Source: Candidatus Aminicenantes bacterium (GTDB lineage: Bacteria; Acidobacteriota; Aminicenantia; JAMOAD01). From it: a DNA stretch of 64,000 nucleotides. Location of the stretch: the NCBI GenBank assembly GCA_027061995.1, contig JAMOUT010000075.1, forward strand, positions 92 to 64,091, written 5' to 3'. The notes under the pieces were generated by a model that worked only from the letters and a program-made list of their open reading frames with translations, had not been told where the DNA came from and searched no databases. The position numbers and the translations under genes are program-made. This document shows positions 32,603 to 48,046 of this stretch, piece by piece. How positions within the stretch are numbered: position 1 is the stretch's first letter; every line of letters starts with the position of its first letter.

Positions 32603-32634
32603 AAAAAAGCCCTTCCGAAAGGAAGGGCTTTTTT
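32603..32634. terminator. Bidirectional rho-independent terminator (A-run, aagcccttcc-gaaa-ggaagggctt, T-run)
   Basis: A GC-rich 10-bp stem is flanked by A and T runs. It separates the family array from the glycan locus. Confidence 0.65.
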
Positions 32635-32653: not shown

Positions 32654-33793
32654 TTATCTTCTCCTCTTCATTTCTTTACCTTTAAGATTAATTTCCGTAG
32701 AAGCAAGGACTTCATGAGTTTCAGCATTCCTGTAAACAACCTTAAATCCTCCGATTCCGGGGCCAAGCTTCATGCCTGTATTTATTGTTACAAATCTCTT
32801 ATTAGTTCTCATCCCTAATCTTCTTTTCGCAATAAATCTTCCCGTTTCTCCCTTTAATACAAGACCTCTTTTTGTAATTTTCCCGATTGTTTTAATAGGC
32901 TCTTCTCCTCTATACAAAACTATTTCTATTTCGGCTCCACCTTTCGCTAATCTTTCTCTGAAAACAGGATTTTCAAATCTTTTAAGTTTATTAATTTCCA
33001 ATCTTAAGCATTGAGGACAATAGGGACCGGGCTGCGGACCATCAGGACCAAAAGGACCCCAAGGACCCCAACCTATAATTATGCGAGCATTTCTGAGTTT
33101 TTCTATAATCCACGGATCAATATGGATACCGTTATCACTGCAGTTATCACTAATTGTAAAAACATCGCCATTGTCATAGACAGCATTATCAACGGTTTTT
33201 ACTCTTACTACATAAGAACCATTGGGAATAGTGTTAGGAATTGTCCATGAGAAAGAACCGTCATTGGCAGTCGGATTTACTATGATAGTTTGCAAAGTAG
33301 TCAAATCAGTCTTATATAGCGTAATCTTAACACTATCATTCATGCTACCGCTCTTTGTCCATCTGATTGTGTGAGAACTTCCTTTCTCTAAACAATCTCC
33401 ACTACGCGGATCGGTTACCGTAATCGTGCCACCCGTCGGAGCAGATGTTGCGATATTGAAAACATCACTATCATCATAAACCTGATTATCAATTGTCTTT
33501 ACCCTGACAATATACTGACCGTTAGGAATGGAATTAGGAATTGTCCATGAGAAGGAACCATCATTAGCGGTCGGCCTAACTATTATCATTTGTAATGTCG
33601 TATGATCGGGTTTATACAGCGTAATTTTAACATTATTGTCCATACTACCGCTCTTTGTCCATCTGATAGTATATGTGCTTCCCTTGTGCCATGTTGAGCC
33701 CGAGTGGGGATTTGTTACTGTTATGCTTTGTGCATAACTCATTGCAGTTATGAAAACCGCAATCAATAAAAACAATAAAACTTTTTTCTTCAT
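32654..33793 (-). CDS. Secreted modular protein, family member 1: signal peptide, 2x Kre9/KNH-like ~90-aa domains, variable Gly/Pro-rich C-terminus
   Basis: The start is set at ATG 33793 after GGAGG. The signal peptide is MKKKVLLFLLIAVFITAMSYAQS. The repeats read ITVTNPHSGSTWHKGSTYTIRWTKSGSMDNNVKITLYKPDHTTLQMIIVRPTANDGSFSWTIPNSIPNGQYIVRVKT. Confidence 0.8.
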   Translation of the reverse strand: MKKKVLLFLLIAVFITAMSYAQSITVTNPHSGSTWHKGSTYTIRWTKSGSMDNNVKITLYKPDHTTLQMIIVRPTANDGSFSWTIPNSIPNGQYIVRVKTIDNQVYDDSDVFNIATSAPTGGTITVTDPRSGDCLEKGSSHTIRWTKSGSMNDSVKITLYKTDLTTLQTIIVNPTANDGSFSWTIPNTIPNGSYVVRVKTVDNAVYDNGDVFTISDNCSDNGIHIDPWIIEKLRNARIIIGWGPWGPFGPDGPQPGPYCPQCLRLEINKLKRFENPVFRERLAKGGAEIEIVLYRGEEPIKTIGKITKRGLVLKGETGRFIAKRRLGMRTNKRFVTINTGMKLGPGIGGFKVVYRNAETHEVLASTEINLKGKEMKRRR

Positions 33794-33828: not shown

Positions 33829-33845
33829 TGCATTTTTTGTGCCAT
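33829..33845 (-). promoter_or_regulatory. Sigma54-like -24/-12 element (minus strand reads TGGCACaaaaaaTGCA)
   Basis: The GG-N10-GC spacing is exact. It lies ~40 bp upstream of the start codon. The homologous element is conserved upstream of all family members. Confidence 0.45.
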
Positions 33846-33918
33846 AGCGCATTATTTAAGAAAACGGTTGATATCATTGCATTTTATTTTGTCCACCACT
33901 ATTCATCAAACAACCGAA

Positions 33919-33958
33919 CGACAGAATTGTCGGCCGGTTAGACAAAAATGTCGGCCGG
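33919..33958. promoter_or_regulatory. Tandem palindromic upstream sites (cGACAgaatTGTCggccgg / GACAaaaaTGTCggccgg), candidate enhancer/UAS
   Basis: A GACA-N4-TGTC dyad recurs upstream of every family member, 70-110 bp from the -24/-12 element. Confidence 0.45.
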
Positions 33959-34045
33959 TTTTAAAATTATTGACAAAAATGTTAATCTTCTCCGGAATTG
34001 TTTTCCCCTTTTGGCTATAATTATATTTGATTTCGCGTATTGATT

Positions 34046-34082
34046 TAAAAAAAAAGCCGCCTTTTCATCTGAAAAGGCGGCT
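34046..34082 (-). terminator. Rho-independent terminator of family member 2 (agccgccttttc-atct-gaaaaggcggct followed by a T-run on the minus strand)
   Basis: A 12-bp GC-rich stem is followed by a run of 9 T on the coding strand. Confidence 0.7.
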
Positions 34083-34103
34083 TATATATCTGATACGGTT
34101 TTT

Positions 34104-35621
34104 TTATTTCAGCATATCATTAATTGCTTTTCCACTTTTACTCATACTATTGTTATTCGGATTACAATCATCATTAGTTTTAAGATTATCAGCTCCTATA
34201 TCAGGGTCATATGTAAGATAAACTTTGAATGTGGGCGGAAACTCCCCTTCATTCGGAGAACTCGAATTCCAATCCATCTCATAGTTTATTGTGATAGTTT
34301 CTCCCGCTTTAAGATTCTGAAAATTTTTCGTTTTTAAGGGATGAGTAGGATCTCCCATATCCATAACTATCATCTGTTGGTTAGGGTGGCTTATGTAATC
34401 CGCATTGCCCACATTCTTAACTACCCCTGTAATTCTGACTTTCCCTCTGAATTGACTATACTTTCTTACTATACTAAATTTTATATCCACTACGGCAAGG
34501 TCAGGACACTTTTTAGTAAGCCTTGCATTTTGTAAAATCTTAGGGTTAATTGTAGTAATAAGTGAATTATTATAAACTCTTCCATGCTCCATACCTTTAA
34601 CTTTTAGTTCCTTTTCACCTATCGGGTTTTTACCGGAAAAAACCACCAATTTGTAACCGCGAGGATTCCTTCCCATCATTTCCTTTTGTTTAGGTGTTAA
34701 TCTTAAATCAAACATGCTCGGCATACTATTAAAAAAGACTCCTCCTCTTTTTACCATAGGTCTGAATACACCAAAATTATAAATGACCTCTCTTCCTTTC
34801 ATCAACTTTATAGTTACCGGCTGTTTAATGTTTGATTTCTCAAGAGCATTTTTAATACCACCGATTCCACGAATTCTGGGACCCGGTCCGTGCATGTAAA
34901 TAGCAAGTTCGGCAAGATTCAGGCTTGCACGAAAACGCCCGAAGTCAATAGAAGGAATTCCACTATCACAATTATTACTAATAGAAAAAATGTCACTATC
35001 ATCATATACGGTATTGTCAACTGTTTTTACTCTTACAACATAAGAACCTTCGGGAATAGAGTTCGGGACTACCCAAGTATAAGCACCATCATTGGCAGTC
35101 GGGTTTACTATGATAGTTTGTAAAGTAGTCAAATCAGTCTTATATAGCGTAATCTTAACACTATCATTCATACTACCGCTCTTTGTCCATGTGATCGTGT
35201 GAGAACTTCCTTTTTTCCAACAATCTCCACTATGCGGATCGGTTACCGTAATCGTGCCACCCGTCGGAGCAGGTGTTGCGATATTAAAAACAACACTATC
35301 ATCATAAACAGCATTGTCCATTGTCTTTACTCGGACAATATACTGGCCATCAGGAATGGAATTGGAAACCACCCACGAGAAAATGCCGTCATTAGCAGTC
35401 GGCCTAACTATTATCATTTGTAATGTCGTATGATCGGGTTTATACAGCGTAATTTTAACATTATTATCCATACTACCGCTCTTTGTCCAAGTGATATTAT
35501 AAGTGTTTCCCTTATACCATGTTGAACCCGAGTGGGGATTTGTAACGGTAATGCTTTGAGCATAACTAAAGGCAATCATAAAAACTGCAATTAAAAAAAT
35601 CATTAAAACTCTTTTCTTCAT
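34104..35621 (-). CDS. Secreted modular protein, family member 2: signal peptide, 2x Kre9/KNH-like domains, C-terminal CARDB-like domain
   Basis: MKKRVLMIFLIAVFMIAFSYAQS is followed by the same tandem domains. The C-terminal CPDLAVVDIKF...ITGVVKNVGNAD resembles CARDB. Confidence 0.8.
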   Translation of the reverse strand: MKKRVLMIFLIAVFMIAFSYAQSITVTNPHSGSTWYKGNTYNITWTKSGSMDNNVKITLYKPDHTTLQMIIVRPTANDGIFSWVVSNSIPDGQYIVRVKTMDNAVYDDSVVFNIATPAPTGGTITVTDPHSGDCWKKGSSHTITWTKSGSMNDSVKITLYKTDLTTLQTIIVNPTANDGAYTWVVPNSIPEGSYVVRVKTVDNTVYDDSDIFSISNNCDSGIPSIDFGRFRASLNLAELAIYMHGPGPRIRGIGGIKNALEKSNIKQPVTIKLMKGREVIYNFGVFRPMVKRGGVFFNSMPSMFDLRLTPKQKEMMGRNPRGYKLVVFSGKNPIGEKELKVKGMEHGRVYNNSLITTINPKILQNARLTKKCPDLAVVDIKFSIVRKYSQFRGKVRITGVVKNVGNADYISHPNQQMIVMDMGDPTHPLKTKNFQNLKAGETITINYEMDWNSSSPNEGEFPPTFKVYLTYDPDIGADNLKTNDDCNPNNNSMSKSGKAINDMLK

Positions 35622-35657
35622 TTGAAAACCTCCTATAGTTCCTTAATAAACAGTATA

Positions 35658-35674
35658 TACATTTTTTGTGCCAT
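35658..35674 (-). promoter_or_regulatory. Sigma54-like -24/-12 element (TGGCACaaaaaaTGTA)
   Basis: Paralogous to 33829-33845, with GT in place of GC at -12. Confidence 0.4.
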
Positions 35675-35750
35675 AGAGCATTATTTTAGAAAACGGTTGA
35701 TATCATTGCTTTTAATTTTGTTCTCCCTTATGCACTAAACGATGAATCGA

Positions 35751-35785
35751 CTAATATGTCGCCTAAACAGACAGAAATGTCAGTC
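35751..35785. promoter_or_regulatory. GACAgaaaTGTC dyad plus half-site, candidate UAS
   Basis: Same position relative to the promoter as in member 1. Confidence 0.4.
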
Positions 35786-35841
35786 AATTTTAAAATTATT
35801 TTCCCCTTTTGGATATGATTATGTTGCTTTAATATTGATTT

Positions 35842-35874
35842 AAAAAAGCCGCCTTTTCGTTGGAAAAGGCGGCT
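35842..35874 (-). terminator. Rho-independent terminator of family member 3 (agccgccttttc-gttg-gaaaaggcggct)
   Basis: The stem is nearly identical to the terminator at 34055-34082, so it was duplicated along with the gene. Confidence 0.7.
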
Positions 35875-35896
35875 CTATCTCTGAGACAGTTTTTAT

Positions 35897-37651
35897 TTAT
35901 TCAATAAAATCAAATACTGTGATATAGGTGCCTTCAACATTATGAGCCTTGATTGCTTTACTTGAAATAACATGGTTTTTATCTTTTATAACAAGCGCAT
36001 ACTTTATTAGCTTTCCGCACGGAGCTCTCTTAACCTTAACAACATATTTGTTGCTATACGGATAATAACAGGTAGAATTCATCATCTTTTTGTTTATGGG
36101 AATCTCTTTCAATCTTTCCCATGTTTTTGTTTTTTCTCTGTAATATTTAATATATGCTTCTTCGGCTCCGACAAAATCATACAGGAATGCAACCGTTCCT
36201 TCATTATGGTAAGTCACTCCTGTTTCAACTTTTTTTGTTTGATCGACGATTTTAAAACTTTTGATATAAGGTTTGCGTTTAACCCAAAGAATTGAATAAG
36301 AATTATTGTCTTTTCCTATTGATTCCATTTCGATTGTTATATCTCTGTATTTATCATGAATTTGAAAGGAACCTATGCTTGAGTCTTTTTTACTATCATA
36401 TGTTACCCAATTCTTTTTAGTTTTAGTATCATATATTTTACCCCTTACAGCATCAACAAAATTATAATAGATTAAAGGTGGAATTTGTCCGCAATTCACC
36501 CAAACAGTTTTATTTTTGGTATCTTTAAAAAAAAGTTTTGATTTTATATTTATATCTCCTCGCTTAACCTTTAAGTTTAACAAAGCCTTATTGTTATCTT
36601 CGTTCGCTTCGTCAATCAATCTGCTTGAATCAACCATAACCTGAAGAGTATAATAACCGGCTTTAGTATATTTAATATTGTTTAACCTGATAACAATTTG
36701 CTCATTCCTTTTTAAACCATATTTCACAAATCCTTTTGATATGCTATTGTCATTATTATAAGCATAGGTTTTAAAAAATTTATCTGCCGGAATATCATTC
36801 CCGATATTCTTTATTGTTACTTTAATGGAAAAAGGTCTGTTTGAATACAAGGTGGAAGGCTCTGTTTCAACTTTTATAATTTTAAGATCAGGTTTGTATT
36901 CCATGAATTTTTGCAATGGCTCCGCGAGAGTATTATTATATGTTTTTAATGTTGCAGTTTCCGGTTGATTATAATTGTCTTTGATAAAATCTGTCAAAGA
37001 ACTTCTTTTAATTGTAAAAACAGCACTATCATCATATACCTTGTTATTCATCGTTTTCACTCGGATAATATACTGTCCATCAGGTATGGAATTAGGAATT
37101 GTCCATGAGAAGGAACCATCATTGACGGTCGGCCTAACTATTATCATTTGTAATGTCGTATGATCGGGTTTATACAGCGTAATTTTAACATTATTGTCCA
37201 TGCTACCGCTCTTTGTCCATCTGATTGTGTGAGAACTTCCTTTCTCTAAACAATCTCCACTATGCGGATCGGTTACCGTAATCGTGCCACCCGTCGGAGC
37301 AGGTGTTGCGATATTAAAAACAACACTATCATCATAAACCTGATTATCAATTGTCTTTACCCTGACAATATACTGACCGTTAGGAATGGAATTAGGAATT
37401 GTCCATGAGAAGGAACCATCATTAGCGGTCGGCCTAACTATTATCATTTGTAATGTCGTATGATCGGGTTTATACAGCGTAATTTTAACATTATTGTCCA
37501 TACTACCGCTCTTTGTCCATCCGATAGTATATGTGCTTCCCTTGTGCCATGTCGAGCCCGAGTGGGGATTTGTAACGGTAATGCTTTGGGCATAACTAAA
37601 GGCAATCATAAAAACTGCAATTAACAATAACATTAATACTTTTCTTTTCAC
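35897..37651 (-). CDS. Secreted modular protein, family member 3: signal peptide, 2x Kre9/KNH-like domains, long variable C-terminus with CARDB-like segment
   Basis: MKRKVLMLLLIAVFMIAFSYAQS is the signal peptide (GTG start). KPDLKIIKVETEPSTLYSNRPFSIKVTIKNIGN is CARDB-like. The protein is 584 aa. Confidence 0.8.
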   Translation of the reverse strand: MKRKVLMLLLIAVFMIAFSYAQSITVTNPHSGSTWHKGSTYTIGWTKSGSMDNNVKITLYKPDHTTLQMIIVRPTANDGSFSWTIPNSIPNGQYIVRVKTIDNQVYDDSVVFNIATPAPTGGTITVTDPHSGDCLEKGSSHTIRWTKSGSMDNNVKITLYKPDHTTLQMIIVRPTVNDGSFSWTIPNSIPDGQYIIRVKTMNNKVYDDSAVFTIKRSSLTDFIKDNYNQPETATLKTYNNTLAEPLQKFMEYKPDLKIIKVETEPSTLYSNRPFSIKVTIKNIGNDIPADKFFKTYAYNNDNSISKGFVKYGLKRNEQIVIRLNNIKYTKAGYYTLQVMVDSSRLIDEANEDNNKALLNLKVKRGDINIKSKLFFKDTKNKTVWVNCGQIPPLIYYNFVDAVRGKIYDTKTKKNWVTYDSKKDSSIGSFQIHDKYRDITIEMESIGKDNNSYSILWVKRKPYIKSFKIVDQTKKVETGVTYHNEGTVAFLYDFVGAEEAYIKYYREKTKTWERLKEIPINKKMMNSTCYYPYSNKYVVKVKRAPCGKLIKYALVIKDKNHVISSKAIKAHNVEGTYITVFDFIE

Positions 37652-37687
37652 TCTTAATTCCTCCTTTAATTTTAATAAAAAAAATAT

Positions 37688-37703
37688 TCAATTTTTATAC
37701 CAA
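37688..37703 (-). promoter_or_regulatory. Sigma54-like element (TGGTATaaaaaTTGA)
   Basis: Conserved position. The region 37652-37710 is identical to 42305-42362. Confidence 0.35.
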
Positions 37704-37775
37704 AACATATTCTTCGGAAAAATATTTAACCGCCTCGTTCTTTATAAAAAAACAAAATACTACCTTAAATAGATT

Positions 37776-37810
37776 GACGACAATATTGTCTTATTAAAAA
37801 CAATTTTGTC
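37776..37810. promoter_or_regulatory. GACgACAATATTGTC palindrome plus ACAATTTTGTC, candidate UAS
   Basis: A perfect 12-bp dyad GACAATATTGTC is present. Confidence 0.45.
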
Positions 37811-38042
37811 TATAATCTATACAAAGGTGTTGGCATTTGTTTTGTTCCTTATGATTTTCCCCTTTTTATTTTATCTTTGATACATCCGTCTCGGTTTTTT
37901 AATATATTAAAAAGAATCATAATAAGAATATTATATTTACCCGTCTCATTCTCTTATGAATTTAATATTTCACAAAGAGTAAATAAAATATGACAAAAAA
38001 TTCTCTGAAACATCATTATTATTTTTATCTTACCCCGCCAGT

Positions 38043-38078
38043 AAAAAAAAAGAGGGCAAACTTCGTTTGCCCTCTTTT
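38043..38078. terminator. Bidirectional rho-independent terminator (aaagagggcaaac-ttcg-tttgccctcttt)
   Basis: A 13-bp stem is flanked by A-run and T-run, downstream of family member 4. Confidence 0.7.
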
Positions 38079-38106
38079 TATATCTTCGTTTTGTTATTAT
38101 TTCCTA

Positions 38107-39423
38107 CTATCTCTCCAGAACCTCTATCTCCATATAAACATTATCATAATAATCAACACACTTGTTATTATTATGAGAAAAGCTCTCATCCACTCCGGTG
38201 AAAATTATTCCGTGATTGAAAGAGGGATTTCTAACCCATTTTCTAACCAAAGACGATAAATTTCCCTGTGGATTTTCAATAAGCTCAATAGAAGCATTAA
38301 ACAGGTTACTAAAAGGTTTTGTGACCCTGTAAATTCTTAAGCCACAATAGTTCCCCTTATAATGATGGTAGTGAAGGGTAGCTTTTGTTATCAAACCTTT
38401 ACCCTTTAGCTTACTTACATCGAAAAAAGCATGGGCACGGTATGCTTCTCCATAATAATTATATGTTATCGAATCTTCTTTATAAGTATTTGCATAACCA
38501 ACCCTTAATTTTCCGTTACCAGGATCATCATATTTAAACCCCAGCACAAAAGGCGCTCCACCAATTATTGATGATTTTTTCTTATTTTTCCAATGATAAG
38601 TGTTCGTTGTTTTCGCATAAATTTTGTATTTATGAGTTTTTATAGAAGCAAAAATATGAAATGGCTTACTATATCCTACAGCACCATCCTTTTTCCTGAC
38701 TATTTTAATCCTATGATCTCCTATATATTTTATAACATTAGCAAACAGTCTCTCAGGAATCTTCCAATCATAAGTCTTAAGTTTTGATTTATCCCCCCAA
38801 CGAGAAAGGCTAATAAAACCTGCTCTAATAACCTTTTCGACCTCTTTTTTATCAAAACTCACAAGATAAATAGCAAATTCTTCTCCAGATTTTCCTTCCC
38901 ACTTAATCGTCATTGTGGAACCTTCCTTCCACTTGCCTCCGGTAGGACTAATAATGTTAATGGTCTTTAATTTGCCGTTTTTACCGGGATTCACCGCATC
39001 AAGAATGGCGCCAATGTTTTTACTATTATCAGGCTTAATTATGCCCGCATATTTTCCAACATTGGATAAAGAGTCAATTTTAAACACTTCTCCATCATCA
39101 TACACAGAATTATCCATTGTCTTAACTCTTACTAAGTATTTACCGCTCGGGATACTATTCGGGATTGTCCATAAAAATGACCCATTGTTGGGAGTAGGTT
39201 TTGCGATAATATAAATAAGAGACTTATGATCAGGTTTATAAAGAGTGATTTTAACCTGTGAATCCATGTTTCCACTCTTACTCCAAACAATCTTATAGGT
39301 ATTGCCTTTAATCCAGGTATTTTGGGAATTAGGCTTTTTGACAGTTATTGTCCCTGAACCTGAATAAGCAAATGCAACAAAAAATAAAATGACCACAACA
39401 AAAATTAAAAGTTTTTTTCTCAT
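38107..39423 (-). CDS. Secreted modular protein, family member 4: signal peptide, 1 divergent Kre9/KNH-like domain, different C-terminal beta-rich region
   Basis: The start is set at ATG 39423 after GAGGAGG. The signal peptide is MRKKLLIFVVVILFFVAFAYSGSG. The domain reads ITVKKPNSQNTWIKGNTYKIVWSKSGNMDSQVKITLYKPDHKSLIYIIAKPTPNNGSFLWTIPNSIPSGKYLVRVKT. Confidence 0.75.
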   Translation of the reverse strand: MRKKLLIFVVVILFFVAFAYSGSGTITVKKPNSQNTWIKGNTYKIVWSKSGNMDSQVKITLYKPDHKSLIYIIAKPTPNNGSFLWTIPNSIPSGKYLVRVKTMDNSVYDDGEVFKIDSLSNVGKYAGIIKPDNSKNIGAILDAVNPGKNGKLKTINIISPTGGKWKEGSTMTIKWEGKSGEEFAIYLVSFDKKEVEKVIRAGFISLSRWGDKSKLKTYDWKIPERLFANVIKYIGDHRIKIVRKKDGAVGYSKPFHIFASIKTHKYKIYAKTTNTYHWKNKKKSSIIGGAPFVLGFKYDDPGNGKLRVGYANTYKEDSITYNYYGEAYRAHAFFDVSKLKGKGLITKATLHYHHYKGNYCGLRIYRVTKPFSNLFNASIELIENPQGNLSSLVRKWVRNPSFNHGIIFTGVDESFSHNNNKCVDYYDNVYMEIEVLER

Positions 39424-39455
39424 TATAACCTCCTCTAAAAAAGTAAAAAAGTTTA

Positions 39456-39471
39456 TCAATTTTCATGCCAA
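39456..39471 (-). promoter_or_regulatory. Sigma54-like element (TGGCATgaaaaTTGA)
   Basis: Matches TGGCAYG-N4-TTGM. The gene start lies ~35 bp downstream. Confidence 0.4.
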
Positions 39472-39532
39472 AGTTTAAAACCATTGAATACACCAATATT
39501 TAACAAATAAAAAAAGATTTCTAAAAAATTTT

Positions 39533-39570
39533 GCCGACAATATTGTATGATAAAAAACATTTTTGTCGGG
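39533..39570. promoter_or_regulatory. GCCGACAATATTGTA and ACATTTTTGTCGGG dyads, candidate UAS
   Basis: Same motif class as the other members. Confidence 0.4.
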
Positions 39571-40858
39571 TTTCACTTGTTGAAAACTAAATGATAAATG
39601 TTATTTCGCCTGTTTTTTACACACGCCACCCAGCACTTTCTTTAAACAACCATAATAATTATTCTGCCGCTTCCATATAACTCTTAACCAAAGTTTCATA
39701 AAGATTTCTTTATCAGGAACCAACAGTTAAAACACTTTCATAATTACAATAAAATAATATTAAAACTATGACCATATCTTTCTCTTCAACTGTTTTTTTT
39801 CTTTTTGAATGTATTCAAAAGTTTTTTAGTTTACCTGTCATCTTTATTTTTTACCTTCCCTTTTTTATTTATTAAAAATTGCATAACTTCAAACTTTCAA
39901 CTTTGTTTTTGCACGATTGTTTCTTTCTTTATCTTCCCTAACAGTATGATAAGGGGCTATCTTATCTCAAGCCAAACATCTTTTAAGATATAAATCCACT
40001 CTTTTCTTTCTACAGCGTTAAATTTCCCGAGGGCAATTGATAGGATATTGAGGTATTTTATTCCTTTGGTTTATATAAAGAATTTATGTTTAGTAGGTTC
40101 CAAGACTTTTTCCCTATATTTTTACGCCACCTCATACTTTTTCTTTACTAATTATTAACTTTCGGAGTCATTAACCATACAATGAGATCATGTAGAGTTT
40201 CTCTTGATACAGTCATATCTTTACGCTTGCATTCATCTCCCCGTTTTTTGACCACCTTATGGTATATGAATGAACACTCTTCATACCAAGTATTACACAA
40301 TATCGAAGCTGTTACTATAATACTCTGCAAATGCCCCAGAGAGGATAAACATCATAATAAATAAACATTATAATTTTTTTTCTATCATTTTAGACATACA
40401 AAATTCATGAAATATAGGTTTAATCTTTATGCCATACTATTTATTATTATATTAATGCTTTAAATATTATTTAATAACTATATTTAAACTATTTTTAATA
40501 ATTAATTTGCAAGGTTAGCTAAAAAAAGACAAAAAAATCTATAAATAATTATATTTATACATTGCTGTCCTATAAGATTCAGAGTGTCCAAAAGAGAGTA
40601 ATATCAAGAGTTAACGAAAAAGATAAGTAAGATTTCTTTTTTTACTCTATTAAAAAAGTTAATCAATTTTCATATAATTAGTCCTTTCTAATTATTAGTC
40701 GAGTGTTCTCCTTATGAAAAAATTAAAATTTTGTAATGACGGCGGTTAAACATCTCGGATATACAATTTTCTTTTGAAAATATAGCAGAATCAACAATCG
40801 TTTTTTTGTCCAAAAAAATCCTTTCATTTTTCCTTTCTTTTATATTATTAAAATTTTT

Positions 40859-42304
40859 TTAATTAGAGCATTTTTTCTTTCCTGTATTATGAACAGGTGC
40901 TCCCACACCTACAACTTTTATATAAGTTTTAACTAAATTGTTCCCAATAGAACGCTCCGCACAATCACTGTTAATCGGGCAAACTACATAAACAGCAACT
41001 TTTCTTACCCCCGATAAAAACCATCTGTTCTCTACAGTATAGGATCTATGACCTCCCGGAGAGATTTTTGGTAAACTAAAAATTTTGGGAGGGTCCGGAG
41101 GGAGAGTGGGATCATGCACTATATTCTTTATCAAAATCTGTAAATTACATCTACTGCAGGAATTTTGATCTCCGATGTTTTTTACATCAACATTTAATAT
41201 TACTTTTTTACCGGGAGCCACCTCTTTTTTATCATCCACACAAACAATAAGATCAGGAAGACCTTTTGTAAAAATTGTCTTTATAATTTTATTATTATCA
41301 TACCTCTTTTCTCGAACTCCTCTGCTCTCATTAACAGTATAAGTAAAAATGTATCTACCCTTCTTCTTAAAATAAAAATCAGCTTTCCAATTAACACTTC
41401 CACCTCGAGAAATATTAGAAAAGATATGTTTTATCACTTTTGTATAATTTTCAGGTCCATTAACAACAAGTTTTGTTTCAACATTATTCACACCCTTTAA
41501 ACCCATATTCCCCACTTTAACTTTAAACTCAGTTTTATTAACAGTTCCTCCGACAGGTGCAAGAGAGGCCTCCCGAATATAAAGATCGGGTAGAGATATA
41601 ATTTCTGTAGCCGGGTTGTTCCCAATGATAATATTGTCAAGAAGATTATCAATATAAAAAAGTTTGCTCTCTGTTGAAATTCCCCCTCCTATAGTTTTTA
41701 TTTTAATTAAATATTTTCCATTATCCAAAACTGACGGAATCCTCCACATATAAAAATTTTCCCCGAGATTATTTTCACAAGATGAGACAACATCCATAAC
41801 AAAGGATACGCCATGTCCAGCTTGCTTATAAAGCTTAATTTTCACCTGTGAAGACATATCCCCTTCCCTTTTCCATCTTATTTTATAAGTTCTGTTCTTT
41901 CTTAATTTTTCTCCACTTAAAGGGAAAATCATGGTTAGCTTAGGTTGAATAACCGATTCAGAGATTGTAAAATTATCGGAATCATCATAAACCTGATTAT
42001 CAATTGTCTTTACCCTGACAATATACTGACCGTTAGGAATGGAATTAGGAATTGTCCATGAGAAGGAACCATCATTAGCGGTCGGCCTAACTATTATCAT
42101 TTGTAATGTCGTATGATCGGGTTTATACAGCGTAATTTTAACATTATTGTCCATACTACCGCTCTTTGTCCATCCGATAGTATATGTGCTTCCCTTGTGC
42201 CATGTCGAGCCCGAGTGGGGATTTGTAACGGTAATGCTTTGGGCATAACTAAAGGCAATCATAAAAACTGCAATTAACAATAACATTAATACTTTTCTTT
42301 TCAC
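40859..42304 (-). CDS. Secreted modular protein, family member 5: signal peptide, 1 canonical plus 1 divergent Kre9/KNH-like domain, 2 CARDB-like domains, Cys-rich C-terminus
   Basis: The 5' ~350 nt are identical to member 3. LPDLYIREASLAPVGG...KVKVGNMG and LPDLIVCVDDKKEVAPGKKVILNVDVKNIGD are CARDB-like. Confidence 0.8.
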   Translation of the reverse strand: MKRKVLMLLLIAVFMIAFSYAQSITVTNPHSGSTWHKGSTYTIGWTKSGSMDNNVKITLYKPDHTTLQMIIVRPTANDGSFSWTIPNSIPNGQYIVRVKTIDNQVYDDSDNFTISESVIQPKLTMIFPLSGEKLRKNRTYKIRWKREGDMSSQVKIKLYKQAGHGVSFVMDVVSSCENNLGENFYMWRIPSVLDNGKYLIKIKTIGGGISTESKLFYIDNLLDNIIIGNNPATEIISLPDLYIREASLAPVGGTVNKTEFKVKVGNMGLKGVNNVETKLVVNGPENYTKVIKHIFSNISRGGSVNWKADFYFKKKGRYIFTYTVNESRGVREKRYDNNKIIKTIFTKGLPDLIVCVDDKKEVAPGKKVILNVDVKNIGDQNSCSRCNLQILIKNIVHDPTLPPDPPKIFSLPKISPGGHRSYTVENRWFLSGVRKVAVYVVCPINSDCAERSIGNNLVKTYIKVVGVGAPVHNTGKKKCSN

Positions 42305-42339
42305 TCTTAATTCCTCCTTTAATTTTAATAAAAAAAATA

Positions 42340-42355
42340 TTCAATTTTTATGCCA
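42340..42355 (-). promoter_or_regulatory. Sigma54-like element (TGGCATaaaaaTTGA)
   Basis: Identical context to member 3. Confidence 0.4.
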
Positions 42356-42430
42356 AAATGTTTTATTTGTTAAAAATATCATAAAATATTAAATAACATT
42401 AAAAACAATTTTTTTGGTAACAAGTAAAAT

Positions 42431-42448
42431 ACAACAATTTTGTCGATT
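42431..42448. promoter_or_regulatory. ACAACAATTTTGTCG dyad, candidate UAS
   Basis: Same motif class. Confidence 0.35.
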
Positions 42449-42612
42449 CAAATACAATTACAATAAGTGGCCTTCATGTAGAACAATCACGGTTTTCAAC
42501 CAAAATATCTTTTTGTTAAAATTAATATAAGTATTTAGTAATAGAAAAGCGTTCATTGCTAAAATTATAATATAAAATAAAAGATAAAAACATCCCTGAA
42601 TAACAAGTTTAT

Positions 42613-43869
42613 CTATTTCAATTTGAACACATGGATAATGGGTTTATCCTTATCAACATAAGGTTCCGCAATATAAAGATATCCCCTATCTCTATCAAAA
42701 GCAACAGCTCCCAAATGATCTTTTTGCTGATTGGAATTTATATGAAAAAGATATTTATCTATGTTCAAACTTGTGTATGGCTGAGGTTCATAAGGTTTAG
42801 ACCTTCCTTCTATGACCTTTTTAAAATCATCGGGATCATAAAACAGGATAATGCCGTCAAGATAGGTTGACCACCAACCTCTATTATCACATTCAAGACA
42901 GGGTCCATCCTGATTCCCGTACCAGCACTCACCTCTCCCCTTTGTTCCAACAAAAACAACGGCAGCTTTATCTCCCTTGGTCAACCATACGGCTCCCTGC
43001 CATTCATCCGAATTATGATAATTTTTCATCTTGTGTTGAGTTTGATCAAGATCCTCTGTTGAAGTATATTTTAAAAGAGTTTTAAAATTGAGTTTTGTCC
43101 CGTTTGAGGGGGGATTACCCTGTTTCCAGGGGGCGACGGCAAAGAGAGAAGGTCCTTGTCCCGACCACCCTCCGTCTCTGAATCTTCCTGTGGCAAGCTG
43201 ATAACCATCTATATATTCATCAGCCCAATTTTTCGGAATTTCAAACATATAATCATTAGTGCAATATTCATGATGAGGTGTATCAATATACCAATTACCC
43301 GCTTTTTTTGGATTTGATAAATCAAGTTCACACCGGCCGTGAGTTAGATCGGAAGGTTCCTGATAATGTTGTCCGATACAGAAATAGAGTTTTGCCGAAT
43401 TTTGATTTTCCTGCTTGGGAAGATATGTAATGCCCACTCTCGGAATCTCATAATTTGAGATATTAAGGATATCCTTGAATTTCTGTATTGTTTTTGCTCT
43501 CGGTAATTCGGAAAGAACCTTATTTTTTGAAATAACGGGTTTTGGAATACTTATTTCCGATATTCTATATTCCCAAGCATGTCCTGTTCCATAAAGGGAA
43601 CCCGGGTATCCGTCATTTTCTCCGTTTTTATCCCCTTCGGGACAATAAGTAAGAGCAAATCCTCCCCATTCCCAACTGTTAACTATCTCTCCTGTTCCAT
43701 CAGGCAATCTGAATGCTCCCATATACTCCAAATCGGAAGGTTGTATCAGTTGAGTGGGGATAGGGATGTTACTATTATTCGTATCTTCATCATTACCATT
43801 TTCAGTAGCTTTATTGCAATTGAACGCTAATAAAATTAAAAACAAAAATAATATAAAATATTTTTTCAT
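42613..43869 (-). CDS. Secreted hypothetical protein (signal peptide; unrelated to the family) embedded in the array
   Basis: MKKYFILFLFLILLAFNCNK has a signal peptide with a non-canonical lipobox. No Kre9-like domain is present. It starts 13 bp after the upstream terminator. Confidence 0.5.
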   Translation of the reverse strand: MKKYFILFLFLILLAFNCNKATENGNDEDTNNSNIPIPTQLIQPSDLEYMGAFRLPDGTGEIVNSWEWGGFALTYCPEGDKNGENDGYPGSLYGTGHAWEYRISEISIPKPVISKNKVLSELPRAKTIQKFKDILNISNYEIPRVGITYLPKQENQNSAKLYFCIGQHYQEPSDLTHGRCELDLSNPKKAGNWYIDTPHHEYCTNDYMFEIPKNWADEYIDGYQLATGRFRDGGWSGQGPSLFAVAPWKQGNPPSNGTKLNFKTLLKYTSTEDLDQTQHKMKNYHNSDEWQGAVWLTKGDKAAVVFVGTKGRGECWYGNQDGPCLECDNRGWWSTYLDGIILFYDPDDFKKVIEGRSKPYEPQPYTSLNIDKYLFHINSNQQKDHLGAVAFDRDRGYLYIAEPYVDKDKPIIHVFKLK

Positions 43870-43881
43870 TTTAAATAACCC

Positions 43882-43910
43882 AAAGCGGGAGAGTTTTACT
43901 CTCCCGCTTT
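43882..43910 (-). terminator. Rho-independent terminator of family member 6 (aaagcgggagag-tttt-actctcccgcttt)
   Basis: A 12-bp GC-rich stem is followed by U-rich sequence on the minus strand. Confidence 0.6.
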
Positions 43911-43928
43911 ATTTATTATATACAGATA

Positions 43929-45353
43929 TCAGAACAAACGAACGCCTACTCTATAGCGATTATTCTCCTTATCAGATTCGCATCTTGTAATTCTACTTGT
44001 GATGGTTATATACATAGTATAGTGTCCCGCTTTTAATCTGGGATGAACAGAATGTTTTTTGCTCGGGTGACCGAATATTTTATTAAAGCTTATCACTTTT
44101 TCTTCATTACGATCAAACTTGAATGGCCCATAAGTTCCATTGGCACCTTCTATTTCTTGAAAACCACCCTTATAAAGTTCCCATTTTACAAATACATTAT
44201 ACAAAGATGAATAACCGGAACCTCCTGCTTTGGCATGAATTTTAAATTTCACTCGCCAGCGATGGGAAGGTCTTCCGTAAACTTTTTTAATTTTAAAATC
44301 ACTTATTCTGGTAATCATCAAATCTGCATCAGTTACATATATTTTCTTAATTAGTTTATTGTTTCTTTCATCTGTTTCAGTAATTTCGTTCTCAGGATCA
44401 ACTTGTATATAAACGCTTGTTCCGCAAAGATTAACGCCTTCCAAATCCGAGCGATGAACAAGGCATATGTTAAGTTGACTGTTAGCGTTTAATCGGATAT
44501 TATCCTTATTTATATTAAAACGCCTCATAGGCTGATTGTCGGGAATAACTAAAACGCGATACTTAAAAGGTCCATTATAAGCGCTATAATAATTTTTTAT
44601 ATTAGCTCCGATACATCCGTCAAAAGATCTTGAGAAAAAGATATCTTTCACTTCGAAATCGCGCATAATTCTAAGGTTGTGCCCCAGATAATCTCCAAGG
44701 GTACTGCTTGCTATATTAAAAATTTCGCTATCATCATATACGGCATTATCCATTGTCTTTACCCTTACTACATACTGTCCATTAGGTACACTTGAAGGAA
44801 TACTCCATGAATACGAACCATTATTTGCTGTCGGTCTTACTATTATTGTCTCAAGAGTTTCTCCATCAGTATGGTAAAGCGTTATCTTTACCTGACTATC
44901 CATTGCTCCTGTCTTAGTCCATCTTATCGTATAAGAATGACTGTCTCCTTTATACCATGTTTCTCTACTAGGAGAGGTTACATTTATTGATGCTGCGGGC
45001 GCATTGGCGATAGTAAAAACAGCACTTTCTCCGTAAACGGCATTATCCATAGTTTTTACTCTTACTACATACTGACCTGCATGAACGCTTGTCGGAATAC
45101 TCCATGAATACGAACCATTATTTGCTGTTGGTCTTACTATTATTGTCTCAAGAGTTTCTCTGTCAGTATGGTAAAGAGTTATCTTTACCTGACTATCCAT
45201 TGCTCCTGTCTTAGTCCATCTTATCGTATAAGAATGACTGTCTCCTTTATACCATGTTTCTCCCGAATGTGGGGAAGTTACTGTTATTGTCTGTGAAAAA
45301 CATAGTACCCCCATAATCATTACTACAAAAAACAAAAATAATTTTTTCTTCAT
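43929..45353 (-). CDS. Secreted modular protein, family member 6: signal peptide, 2x Kre9/KNH-like domains (divergent subtype), variable C-terminus
   Basis: The signal peptide is MKKKLFLFFVVMIMGVLCFSQT. The repeats read ITVTSPHSGETWYKGDSHSYTIRWTKTGAMDSQVKITLYHTD.ETLETIIVRPTANNGSYSWSIP.SV..GQYVVRVKT. Confidence 0.8.
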   Translation of the reverse strand: MKKKLFLFFVVMIMGVLCFSQTITVTSPHSGETWYKGDSHSYTIRWTKTGAMDSQVKITLYHTDRETLETIIVRPTANNGSYSWSIPTSVHAGQYVVRVKTMDNAVYGESAVFTIANAPAASINVTSPSRETWYKGDSHSYTIRWTKTGAMDSQVKITLYHTDGETLETIIVRPTANNGSYSWSIPSSVPNGQYVVRVKTMDNAVYDDSEIFNIASSTLGDYLGHNLRIMRDFEVKDIFFSRSFDGCIGANIKNYYSAYNGPFKYRVLVIPDNQPMRRFNINKDNIRLNANSQLNICLVHRSDLEGVNLCGTSVYIQVDPENEITETDERNNKLIKKIYVTDADLMITRISDFKIKKVYGRPSHRWRVKFKIHAKAGGSGYSSLYNVFVKWELYKGGFQEIEGANGTYGPFKFDRNEEKVISFNKIFGHPSKKHSVHPRLKAGHYTMYITITSRITRCESDKENNRYRVGVRLF

Positions 45354-45392
45354 GATCTTTTACCTCCTTTATTTGTTAATATAATAACCTTA

Positions 45393-45407
45393 TCAAATTC
45401 TATGCCA
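45393..45407 (-). promoter_or_regulatory. Sigma54-like element (TGGCATagaatTTGA)
   Basis: Conserved motif and spacing. Confidence 0.4.
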
Positions 45408-45480
45408 CAATCTCTTTTGCGATAAAAAAGCTTAATTCTATTCTTTCTTCAGGAAAACAACTTTTTCATTTTTTTATAAT

Positions 45481-45517
45481 TTCGACATTATTGTTATATT
45501 AACAACGAAATTGTTAA
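45481..45517. promoter_or_regulatory. TTCGACATTATTGTT / AACAACGAAATTGTT degenerate dyads, candidate UAS
   Basis: Degenerate version of the GACA-N4-TGTC site. Confidence 0.3.
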
Positions 45518-46288
45518 GCTTTTCAATTAAATTCTTTTATTTCGAAACAGTACTATAAGCTTATAATCAGAGTTATCAATTTTATTCTATATAAATCTGT
45601 TGAAAGAGAAAAAGCGACACCTCATATATATTCACTTATATTAATTATTCCTTTAGTATTAGTTAGCAAAACTTTAACTCCCTTATAGTCGAACAATTTT
45701 AACCGGAGTAATCTTATCTTCCCTTTTTTATCAATCTTAGGGATATTGTTTTCCTGCTTTTTACTCAAAAAAATATTATTCTTTATTATTAGTCGGTAAT
45801 TTAGTTATACAATTAACAAAACGGTCAAATCCTTTTAAATATTCTTTATTATATTAAAGGGTGTTACATATAAATTTTTTAACATGGTTAATTATTGCAG
45901 GCTCACAATGATTTTAAAAAACTGTGATAAAAATACAAATATTTTTGAGCCTACTTAAATATATTTTTTTTAAACATTAAAATTAACTATAATTCAATCT
46001 TAATTGTATTAACTGCGGGAGCAAAACGAATTTTACTTTCCAAAACCCCTGTTTTAGCAATTACAATAAGTTTAGGACATACTCTTTTATGGATACCGAA
46101 AAATAATTTTTATGTGCTTAATTTAATTTCCCCTTTACAAATATTAGCACAATGATTTGATTTGTCTGTTTCCAATCGAATATCTTTTCCCTTTTTATCT
46201 TTACTCTTATTTTTTATTTTTTACCGCATTTTCTTCTCTTTCTCATTCTTTAAACATTATTAAAAACAAACTATTTCACTTCCCCTTA

Positions 46289-47317
46289 TTAATTATCAGA
46301 ACCTGAGTTAAATTTTGTTTTATTTATAATTGTTTTCTTTGTCTTTATCTTTTTTAAAGGAGATACCGATAGCTTTGTAATAGTAAAAACTCCGCTATCA
46401 TCAGAATATTTACCATCCTTTGTTCTTATCCTGATAAAATATTTACCCGAGGGAATAGTTGCGGGAATCTTCCACTTATAATCTTTTGCACTGGTTGGAT
46501 ATCGTCTTGTTATAATAGTTTGCAATTTTTTATTATCCGCTCTGTAAAGAGAAAGCTCAATGTAAGGATCAAGCTTTGACAATGACATTGTAAACCATCC
46601 GATATCATATTTCAGACCTTGATACCATTTAAAGCCTTTTTCAGGGGTTTGTAATTTTAAGGTAGGTGGAATATCAAGTATATAAAAAACATCACTGAAA
46701 GCAGAGACTCTCCCATCCGTGGTTATTACTTTAACAACATACTGTCCTTCAGGTATTGAAGAAGAAATATTCCATCTATAATTACCACTGTTCCGCACTC
46801 TTCTTGCAATTTCGGTTTGTAAAGTTCTTTTATCAGGCTTAAATAAAAATATGTTCACATATCTGTCCATGGAAAACAAACGCATCCAGGCTATGTCAAG
46901 CACATCCAATCCTTTATAAAATTTTTGATTTTTATAAGGAGCTTGAATAGCTATGGCAGGTGCAGGCTCTTTAACAGTAAAGTATCCGCTGTTCCCTGAA
47001 ACAGCAGTATTAGTCCCTACTATTTTTATATAATAGGAGCCCGGTTTTAAATTTGTCGGAACTAACCATTTGTAATTTCCATTATTAAAAACATTATTTC
47101 CTATGTCCAGCACTTTCCCTTGTTTATCACACAAATAGATATTAATATGAGAAATAATGTGTTTTTTAATTGTCATTTTCCATTTTACCGGAACATATGA
47201 TTCCCAAGTCCAAACACTTCCTGATTTGGGAGAAACCACATTAATTCTACCCGCAGAATAGAGCACACTTCCTAACACAAAGAGGACCAACAAACTTACA
47301 AAAATTTTTTTGTTCAT
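46289..47317 (-). CDS. Secreted modular protein, family member 7: signal peptide plus 3 divergent Kre9/KNH-like domains, short basic C-terminus
   Basis: The signal peptide is MNKKIFVSLLVLFVLGSVLYSAG. Three repeats follow the pattern W..G..Y.I.W......YV.I.L....K.LQT.I.RR......Y.W.I....P.G.Y.V.V.T.DG. Confidence 0.7.
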   Translation of the reverse strand: MNKKIFVSLLVLFVLGSVLYSAGRINVVSPKSGSVWTWESYVPVKWKMTIKKHIISHINIYLCDKQGKVLDIGNNVFNNGNYKWLVPTNLKPGSYYIKIVGTNTAVSGNSGYFTVKEPAPAIAIQAPYKNQKFYKGLDVLDIAWMRLFSMDRYVNIFLFKPDKRTLQTEIARRVRNSGNYRWNISSSIPEGQYVVKVITTDGRVSAFSDVFYILDIPPTLKLQTPEKGFKWYQGLKYDIGWFTMSLSKLDPYIELSLYRADNKKLQTIITRRYPTSAKDYKWKIPATIPSGKYFIRIRTKDGKYSDDSGVFTITKLSVSPLKKIKTKKTIINKTKFNSGSDN

Positions 47318-47340
47318 TTTAACCTCCTAATAAAAAGCTA

Positions 47341-47356
47341 TCAAATACCATGCCAA
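47341..47356 (-). promoter_or_regulatory. Sigma54-like element (TGGCATggtatTTGA)
   Basis: Conserved motif ~25 bp upstream of the start codon. Confidence 0.4.
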
Positions 47357-47444
47357 AAAAAGATACCTCTCCATAAATAAATTTATTGTTTTTACTATTA
47401 CTTTCTTTCAGGGCAATCTTTACCTCAAGTATCTATCGCCATTT

Positions 47445-47475
47445 ATGTCGATATGCATACATTTTTGTCAATTTT
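47445..47475. promoter_or_regulatory. ATGTCGATAT / CATTTTTGTCAA partial dyads, candidate UAS
   Basis: Weaker version of the site. Confidence 0.25.
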
Positions 47476-47689
47476 AAAAGTTCAATTACTTCTTAACTGA
47501 TTTTCAAAATATTCTTAATTTCCTGTCCACACTTTAAGAAAATGCGTCTTTTGGATTATATAAATTTAAAAAAAGAAAATTAATCTATGGCTTGCTGCTA
47601 CTACCATTAAGTTTTTTATTTTTAAAATATTGGATTTATTGCTTTCTCTTGCACTATTATAAAGGTAAACTTTCATTTAAATTCATACA

Positions 47690-47880
47690 TCTTTCAGTGA
47701 ATGGAACCATGGAGTTCTCTTACAAAATGAATCTTTCCAGACCCCGGAAGGAGTAAGTATATCATGGTGAGTCATTCCTTTTGTCCGTATATAGAATCTT
47801 AATTTTGCAGCATCGGATATTTTTGTTCCTATATTTCTAATTCCCACAAAAATATTACTTCTAAAAAAGGTTCCTATACT
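47690..47880 (-). pseudogene. Decayed remnant of a further family member (CARDB-like fragment ...VGIRNIGTKISDAAKLRFYI...) retaining its own promoter/UAS
   Basis: The minus-strand translation gives a CARDB-like NIGxxxxxAxxxxxxFY segment before stop codons. The conserved promoter motif lies at 47901-47916 and a perfect palindrome at 47984-47999, with no intact ORF. Confidence 0.4.
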
Positions 47881-47900
47881 TTCTTAAATTAAATTTGTTT

Positions 47901-47916
47901 TCAAAATATCATGCCA
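47901..47916 (-). promoter_or_regulatory. Orphan sigma54-like element (TGGCATgatatTTTG) upstream of the remnant
   Basis: Same motif as the other members, with no intact downstream gene. Confidence 0.35.
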
Positions 47917-47983
47917 TAATAATTCTGTATCATAAAAAGTTATTAATATTTACTAATAGAGCAATGAACCATCATCATGTAAC

Positions 47984-48014
47984 ACGACAATATTGTCGTT
48001 CAGGGAACAAAATT
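47984..48014. promoter_or_regulatory. Perfect 16-bp palindrome ACGACAATATTGTCGT plus AACAAAATTGTA, candidate UAS
   Basis: This is the best copy of the dyad in the window. Confidence 0.45.
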
Positions 48015-48046
48015 GTAAGCAAATTGATTAACAAAAAACCATGTTT

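Follow-up and report, generated by a model that had tools for sequence, protein, structure and literature searches.

Promoters read by sigma-54 (RpoN) follow the consensus TGGCAC-N5-TTGCW, in which the C at -12 is nearly invariant in classical compilations, and the classical upstream activator sequence of NifA is TGT-N10-ACA. A 2025 in-vitro transcription library for Pseudomonas putida sigma-54 gave TTGAAT and TTGCAT as core -12 motifs and TTGGTA and TTGGCA as core -24 motifs (PMC11997794). In Desulfovibrio, several motifs of enhancer-binding proteins are built of TGT/ACA half-sites (PMC4641369), and in Geobacter sulfurreducens the NtrC-type protein GnfM acts from two sites, both of them required, at -128 to -112 and -105 to -89 (PMC2995071). 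For whole families of genes, the closest described system is the PEP-CTERM/PrsK-PrsR-PrsT regulon of Proteobacteria, which consists of secreted proteins encoded mostly in single-gene operons (Haft et al., 2006; PMC1569441); these genes have long upstream regions, with an activator motif followed by a sigma-54 motif, and lie beside exopolysaccharide genes (PMC1569441). Here we describe a comparable arrangement in a 64-kb stretch of a metagenome assembly (contig JAMOUT010000075.1, ~30% G+C; hereafter the window), where seven genes for secreted proteins with immunoglobulin (Ig)-like domains are each preceded by a -24/-12-type element and, further upstream, by ACA-N4-TGT dyads. We propose, with a probability of about 0.77, that these are sigma-54, enhancer-dependent promoters and that the family, whose products are surface proteins and whose genes adjoin an exopolysaccharide locus, forms a single regulon.

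The seven family genes occupy the minus strand at 32.6-47.3 kb, with one unrelated gene (42613-43869) between them. Each encodes a signal peptide and two to three Kre9_KNH Ig-like domains; the C-terminal parts are heterogeneous and often contain CARDB. As in the PEP-CTERM/PrsR system, the array comprises many diverse signal-peptide proteins, mostly in single-gene operons with long upstream regions; each gene has an activator-site motif followed by a sigma-54 motif, and the array adjoins exopolysaccharide genes. The two differ in that the family here is of the Kre9_KNH/CARDB type and has no PEP-CTERM tail, the PEP-CTERM activator motif contains TTTACA, and the host here belongs to a non-proteobacterial, low-GC lineage. 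No family protein matched a PEP-CTERM model in Pfam or NCBIfam, and searches of the same collections with 20 of the 27 genes at 1-32.4 kb (all but one of the polysaccharide block among them), which matched the polysaccharide proteins named below or nothing, gave no match to an exosortase, a histidine kinase or a response regulator. Membership was rejected on these grounds: no PEP-CTERM tail, no exosortase and no PrsK/PrsR genes were found among the genes searched. By analogy, the family would work like the PEP-CTERM/PrsR system, which is its closest analogue, without being a member of it.

The element TGG(C/T)A(C/T)-N5-(T/A)TG(A/C/T) stands on the minus strand upstream of all seven intact family genes and at one orphan promoter, with the T of TGG 38-54 nt before the start codon. 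At gene 1 (32654-33793; a signal peptide and two Kre9_KNH domains) it reads TGGCACaaaaaaTGCA, in the register GG-N10-GC, at 33829-33844, and starts 51 nt before the ATG at 33793. It is followed along the array, always on the minus strand, by TGGCACaaaaaaTGTA (35658-35673) at gene 2 (34104-35621), TGGTATaaaaaTTGAA (37687-37702), a TGGTAT variant, at gene 3 (35897-37651; two Kre9_KNH domains and CARDB), TGGCATgaaaaTTGAT (39455-39470) at gene 4 (38107-39423), TGGCATaaaaaTTGAA (42340-42355) at gene 5 (40859-42304; also two Kre9_KNH domains and CARDB), TGGCATagaatTTGAT (45392-45407) at gene 7 (43929-45353) and TGGCATggtatTTGAT (47340-47355) at gene 8 (46289-47317; three Kre9_KNH domains). The orphan element, TGGCATgatatTTTGA at 47901-47916, has no intact gene downstream, where a weak remnant of the family C-terminal domain remains at 47629-47865 (tblastn, 33% identity over 81 aa, E=1e-5). 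A ninth, decayed element (TGGCATaaagaTTAA = TGGCATaaagaTTAAA, 40419-40434), with G changed to A at -13, lies upstream of a pseudogene fragment of the family, a Kre9_KNH domain remnant at 40180-40272 (tblastn).

An initial sequence-only reading had assigned a -24/-12 element to every family copy in the window, and all the sequences it quoted are present on the minus strand; its placement of the gene 1 element at 33829-33845 is off by one base. Such elements are rare elsewhere in this DNA: TGGCAY-N5-WTGH has seven matches in the window against 0.8 expected, a number reached in none of 100 shuffles, and six of the seven are family promoters. That reading also saw no convincing sigma-70 -35/-10 pair, and a scan of the promoters likewise found no recurrent pair upstream of the family genes; candidate -10 boxes there overlap the ribosome-binding site or the start codon.

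Not all of these promoters carry equal weight. Genes 3 and 5 share a block with only four mismatches (37326-37706 and 41979-42359, minus strand) that, counted from the start codon, extends from -55 to +326 and starts exactly at the promoter element. On both sides of it the sequences diverge, the enhancer regions differ, and one of the four differences is TGGTAT versus TGGCAT. The pattern indicates a recent duplication or gene conversion of a 5' module; because the block is nearly identical, the two promoters count as one evolutionary observation rather than as independent ones.

Further upstream, the centres of the dyads in the window lie 71-133 bp before TGG, and most dyads form pairs 20-21 bp apart. 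Gene 1 has three of them (33973-33982, 33942-33951 and 33921-33930, spanning 33921-33982 on the minus strand, as for all those that follow), centred 133, 102 and 81 bp upstream of TGG, and gene 3 also has three (37821-37830, 37800-37809 and 37780-37789, spanning 37780-37830), including GACAATATTGTC. Two perfect dyads 20 bp apart precede gene 4 (39537-39566). A perfect dyad is paired with one matching at 5/6 positions at gene 2 (35771-35780 and 35750-35759, 21 bp apart, spanning 35750-35780), gene 7 (45485-45494 and 45505-45514, 20 bp apart, spanning 45485-45514) and gene 8 (47459-47468 and 47439-47448, 20 bp apart, spanning 47439-47468). Gene 5 has the single dyad cgACAaaatTGTtg (42434-42443), centred 83 bp upstream of TGG, and the orphan promoter has two dyads 20 bp apart (47987-48016), among them the 16-bp perfect palindrome ACGACAATATTGTCGT (47984-47999).

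The sequence-only reading had described these as GACA-N4-TGTC sites, often in tandem, whose eight co-positioned occurrences chance would not produce, and the counts bear it out. GACA-N4-TGTC occurs five times in the window against 0.21 expected, each time inside the cluster, and ACA-W4-TGT occurs 18 times against 2.5 expected. Within the window the dyads are all but confined to the cluster: 17 of the 18 ACA-W4-TGT matches fall at 33.6-48.4 kb, 11 of them in family upstream regions.

The dyads use the same half-site triplets as the sites of NifA and of the Desulfovibrio proteins, and the inner half-sites of the 20-bp pairs read TGT-N10-ACA. The symmetric unit, however, is ACA-N4-TGT, with the order of the half-sites reversed; and, unlike a NifA site, the dyad can stand alone, extends to CGACA-N4-TGTCG and precedes genes for surface proteins rather than nitrogen genes. 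The likeness to GnfM is one of geometry: there, too, a -24/-12 promoter is preceded by a pair of sites, with centres near -97 and -120, that are separated by about two turns of the helix, although the spacing is 23 bp rather than the 20-21 bp seen here. A peculiarity of gene 1 is a direct repeat, aaccggccgaca...aaccggccgaca (33931-33962, minus strand), within which its two proximal dyads lie; the repeat has a GC-rich ccggcc core that is conspicuous in DNA of 30% G+C, and it was not seen at the other promoters.

Relatives of the family allow the same features to be followed outside the window. When species-representative genomes were searched with the family alignment, three loci came to light in two low-GC bins. 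A protein search and the contigs reached from it contributed an array with no fewer than 13 family genes (GCA_027031485.1) and a syntenic contig where a family gene again lies upstream of polysaccharide genes, and the metagenome scan described below supplied two more family loci. The resulting comparison set contains 30 family-gene promoters in 29 independent clusters on six contigs, namely the window and five other low-GC contigs (drawn from the window and L002, L003, L004, L006, L009, L012 and L117), and the conservation figures that follow refer to it.

The 30 upstream regions are otherwise unalignable, and their only conserved island consists of the two blocks with an invariant 5-nt spacer. 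With TGG as the anchor, the information content peaks at TGGCAy(r)AAA.TTGA, with 2.6 bits each for the GG and for the G at -13 and 2.1 bits for the C, which was not selected for. The spacing from GG (-24) to G (-13) is the same in every promoter, and in 26 of the 30 the distance between the T of TGG and the start codon is 45-54 nt. Flanking positions hold ~0-0.3 bits, apart from a T-tract near -17 that is weak (0.4-0.6 bits); beyond these, the upstream regions show only a patch rich in T, at +21 to +25 from TGG, and downstream there is only the ribosome-binding site. Canonical TTGCA is found at -12 in L004, where the full element is TGGCATaaaatTTGCA, and degenerate TGGAAT and TGGGAT forms also occur among the relatives. 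A few of the relatives' family genes, with intergenic gaps below 60 bp, have no element of their own and look operonic; the statement that every member has the element thus stands for the window and fails for the family as a whole.

These promoters resemble sigma-54 promoters in their GG and TTG blocks, invariant 5-nt spacer, lack of a -35/-10 pair and activator sites ~100 bp upstream, in their TGGCAC, TGGCAT and TGGTAT forms, and in the TTGC of some copies. They are unlike them in the A-rich spacer, in that a gene for the sigma factor was not seen in the DNA examined, and at the -12 base, which is A in 23, C in four and T in three of the 30 promoters here versus C in 88 of 108 promoters with a called start codon among the matches listed in the metagenome scan. 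The sequence-only reading had entered the frequent GA at -12 as a caveat to its choice of sigma factor. Since TTGAAT and TTGGTA, variants that are found here too, are functional for P. putida sigma-54 in vitro, the former as a core -12 motif (PMC11997794), that caveat loses much of its force.

The dyads are conserved in position as well as in sequence. Perfect ACA-N4-TGT sites number 40 against 1.2 expected, a site lies 55-115 bp upstream of TGG in 27 of the 30 promoters, and 22 pairs are spaced 20-21 bp apart. Dyad centres cluster at ~61, 72, 82, 92 and 102 bp upstream of TGG and, relative to the -24 element, recur in phase every ~10.25 bp (R=0.52, Rayleigh p ~2e-5; p ~5e-4 with the proximal site of each promoter only). 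The distance shifts by whole helical turns while the same face is kept, which matches the need of a looping activator.

The same design recurs far beyond this family. We scanned Joint Genome Institute (JGI) metagenomes for a dyad, N50-80, TGGCAY-N5-TTG, N18-34 and GGAGG, and found at least 120 loci; the matches listed comprise 116 distinct promoters, 108 of them with a called start codon. Among these listed matches, most lie on mid- or high-GC contigs and have canonical TGGCAC-N5-TTGC, and A takes the -12 position in nine of the 108, one of them before a P-II gene. The genes downstream in the listed matches include 22 for ammonium transporters, four for NifH, three for P-II, two for glutamine synthetase and two for NifB-like radical-SAM proteins; for representative genes, Pfam bore out these assignments. 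Given how frequent true sigma-54 promoters are, a share of the single dyads in the scan set must be chance matches, and the informative signal is therefore the peak of second sites at 20 bp: again among the listed matches, 40 of 116 promoters have, at exactly +/-20 bp, a second dyad not required by the pattern, and 28 have one at -29 to -32 bp, against about one at any other offset. At least 13 of the listed loci also encode an activator with GAFTGA or GSFTGA, most with a Fis-type helix-turn-helix.

Paired dyads thus stand at canonical promoters, so the design in the window is that of bona fide sigma-54 promoters elsewhere, and the proposal of sigma-54 with an enhancer-binding protein, first made by the sequence-only reading, gains support from this identity as well as from the invariant spacer, the TTGCA of relatives and the paired, phased dyads. 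In a further likeness to NifA sites, the same paired dyads precede nifH, nifB-like, amtB, glnB and glnA genes in metagenomes. The 20-bp pair of ACA-N4-TGT has the look of an enhancer that serves a widespread nitrogen regulator in diverse uncultured bacteria; no match of this paired enhancer to a named regulator was made.

Several further observations came from the scan set. The dyad pairs at amtB, glnB, glnA, nifH and nifB-like genes are centred ~61 and ~81 bp upstream of TGG (L011-L130). A recurrent secreted protein of ~145 aa, without a Pfam match, is encoded behind at least 11 canonical sigma-54 promoters with paired dyads on many mid-GC contigs (for example L115:7567-8001, L026:2939-3373, L084 and L129), and several of its loci have a gene for a GAFTGA/GSFTGA activator a few kilobases away. 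On a contig of 35% G+C, TGGCATaatttTTGA and a single dyad lie upstream of a FliL gene (L099:1486-1980); flagellar genes being classical targets of sigma-54, this is another low-GC case of such a target with A at -12.

From this design we infer a sigma factor, a class of activator and a start site, as follows. Each family gene would be a single-gene transcription unit driven by a sigma-54 promoter, and sigma-54 RNA polymerase would form on TGGCA(C/T)-N5-TTG(A/C/T) a closed complex that it could not open alone. An enhancer-binding protein belonging to the NtrC/NifA class and equipped with a Fis-type helix-turn-helix would bind the (C)GACA-N4-TGT(C)(G) dyads, usually at a pair of sites that are separated by 20-21 bp, share one helix face and have their centres ~70-105 bp before the -24 element. 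The activator would then oligomerise, contact the polymerase by looping of the AT-rich spacer, and open the promoter with ATP. Transcription is predicted to start ~11-13 nt past the -12 base, inside the conserved T-rich patch at +21 to +25 from TGG, which would give a leader of ~20-28 nt (~12 nt at gene 8) that includes the GGAGG ribosome-binding site. With a single type of activator site common to all copies, the secreted Kre9_KNH/CARDB array would behave as one signal-dependent regulon.

How well do other explanations fare against the same data? The two-block element could instead belong to promoters of the sigma-70 family, with TTGGCA or TTGA(A/T)(A/T) as the -35 box and the dyads bound by a class I activator or a repressor. 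In favour of this, with a preceding T the first block becomes TTGGCA, which agrees with TTGACA at five of six positions, the second block is often TTGAAT or TTGATA, a simple scan scores GTGGCA-16-TATTAT at gene 7 and TTGATA-17-TAAAAT at gene 8, and the T-rich patch 21-25 nt after TGG is mildly conserved. Yet the base before TGG is unconserved (0.1 bit), and no -10 box with the required A2 and T6 recurs 16-18 bp from either block; with TTGA as its partner at a spacing of 17 bp, a -10 box would coincide with the ribosome-binding site or, at gene 8, with the start codon. Whichever block is taken as the -35 box, the other, with its 2.6 bits and fixed 5-nt spacer, is left unexplained, and the TTGCA of relatives and the same design at canonical sigma-54 promoters also speak against this reading. 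Sigma-70 readings of either block were rejected for want of a -10 partner or for the clash with the ribosome-binding site, and we regard this explanation as improbable.

Equally improbable in our estimation is that the promoters are of the sigma-54 type while the dyads serve as operators for a repressor or an unrelated regulator, the real activator site lying somewhere else or not existing at all. A short, AT-rich palindrome such as ACA-N4-TGT can be bound by many helix-turn-helix families, and no activator gene was found nearby. Against this stand the position of the dyads, at about -85 to -130 from the predicted start, and their 20-21 bp pairing and phasing, all of which suit looping activators. 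The identical arrangement is found at canonical sigma-54 promoters, at least 13 such loci encode an enhancer-binding protein, and there is no other conserved upstream motif.

Slightly less credible again is the view that a lineage-specific transcription factor or an undescribed sigma factor reads the two blocks and that their likeness to -24/-12 elements is coincidental. It draws on the failure to find rpoN in the DNA examined and on the general absence of C at -12, but it must contend with the exact GG-N10-G register in 29 independent promoters, with canonical variants in relatives, with the activity of TTGAAT and TTGGTA for sigma-54 (PMC11997794), and with the co-occurrence of the element and the type of enhancer site seen at true sigma-54 promoters. 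Given the metagenome result, both this explanation and the one that makes the dyads operators are unlikely. That the motifs are leftovers of 5'-region duplication or gene conversion without a regulatory role, as the near-identical block of genes 3 and 5 (-55 to +326) and the visibly similar upstream regions of genes 1 and 2 might suggest, is very improbable, since conservation across the 29 independent regions is limited to the motif positions, the dyads move in helical-turn steps with their sequence retained, and the pseudogene copy has lost the G at -13.

Several points nevertheless weigh against sigma-54 control of the family. Neither rpoN nor a gene for a GAFTGA activator was found in ~170 kb of DNA of this lineage (the 64-kb window, 10 kb beyond its right end and ~95 kb of related contigs), the search having used GAFTGA-loop and RpoN-box motifs on six-frame translations of the window and 131 loci. 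The C at -12, nearly invariant classically, is replaced by A in about three quarters of the copies, and no conserved site for integration host factor (IHF) was found between enhancer and promoter in the 30 promoters. Genes 3 and 5, as well as genes 1 and 2, are recent duplicates, which leaves only about six independent promoters in the window. The transcription start site is only a predicted one, and the related bins bear differing submitter labels, 'Candidatus Aminicenantes' and 'Candidatus Dojkabacteria'.

The surroundings of the array are of interest in their own right. Terminator-like hairpins lie downstream of genes 1, 2, 4 and 7. The unrelated gene inside the array (42613-43869, minus strand) encodes a predicted lipoprotein of 418 aa without a Pfam match; it lies 59 bp past the terminator-like hairpin of gene 7, has no promoter element of its own, and has a homologue at the same position in L006 (15481-16692). 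Directly downstream of the array and on the same strand is a large polysaccharide locus (7152-32430), which encodes epimerases, a sulfatase, a Wzx flippase, a sulfotransferase, a methyltransferase, AsnB, glycosyltransferases, a Wzy-type polymerase, a priming transferase and Wzz; an APS kinase-like gene (8034-8768) and an RmlA gene were read there by eye. The sulfotransferase, the sulfatase-family protein (Pfam) and the APS kinase-like gene together suggest that the product may be a sulfated exopolysaccharide. The order of family gene followed by epimerase, sulfatase and flippase is kept in L009. The polysaccharide operon has a near-perfect extended sigma-70 promoter, TTGTCA-17-TG-TATAAT (32559-32531, minus strand), placed after the terminator of gene 1 (32603-32634); the organism therefore uses ordinary promoters beside the family array.

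Pieces identical to the window are contained in Logan sample SRR7968104, and the source contig measures 120,289 bp. On the left, extension gave no more than a 1.5-kb contig; a contig reaching 10 kb past the right end (L005) carries, after an Rnf operon, genes for CheA, a CheW-receiver protein, a GGDEF protein and ExbD. No -24/-12 match was found in 20 kb of this contig, and no regulator of interest in the 10 kb beyond the window. The ExbD, chemotaxis and Rnf genes suggest a motile diderm anaerobe rather than an organism of the Candidate Phyla Radiation (CPR), whatever the label of one related bin implies. An RNA element was not supported, an Rfam scan of the window having returned no match, and we found no literature on sigma-54 in Aminicenantes.

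Outside this locus, the result may matter in two respects. The family supplies natural promoters with A in place of the 'invariant' C at -12 in most copies, in agreement with the in-vitro data (PMC11997794). The paired ACA-N4-TGT enhancer, in turn, offers a motif for regulon prediction in uncultured taxa and is perhaps more useful than the locus itself. It is tempting to speculate further that through this pair a widespread activator of uncultured anaerobes, apparently not yet described and responsive to nitrogen status, acts at amtB, glnB, glnA and nifH in many lineages, that the same regulator or a close paralogue has been recruited here for variable surface Ig-like proteins, and that sigma-54 in this lineage has a relaxed or shifted specificity at -12 and prefers TTGA over TTGC; taken jointly, we hold these propositions to be doubtful. 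As to the inducing signal, the shared type of enhancer makes nitrogen-status control of the family a possibility, by analogy with those genes.

For the organism itself, the proposed model is a concrete one: in an uncultured, low-GC bacterium, a variable array of secreted Ig-like proteins would be under all-or-none, enhancer-dependent control. This type of tight on/off control is well known, and the gene family under it would be new. Such a regulon would carry the kind of organisation described for PEP-CTERM/PrsR over to another protein family and another lineage, and it fits a proposal, cited in PMC4641369, that sigma-54 governs the bacterial exterior. Should the joint nitrogen reading prove true, remodelling of the cell surface in this bacterium would be tied to nitrogen limitation.

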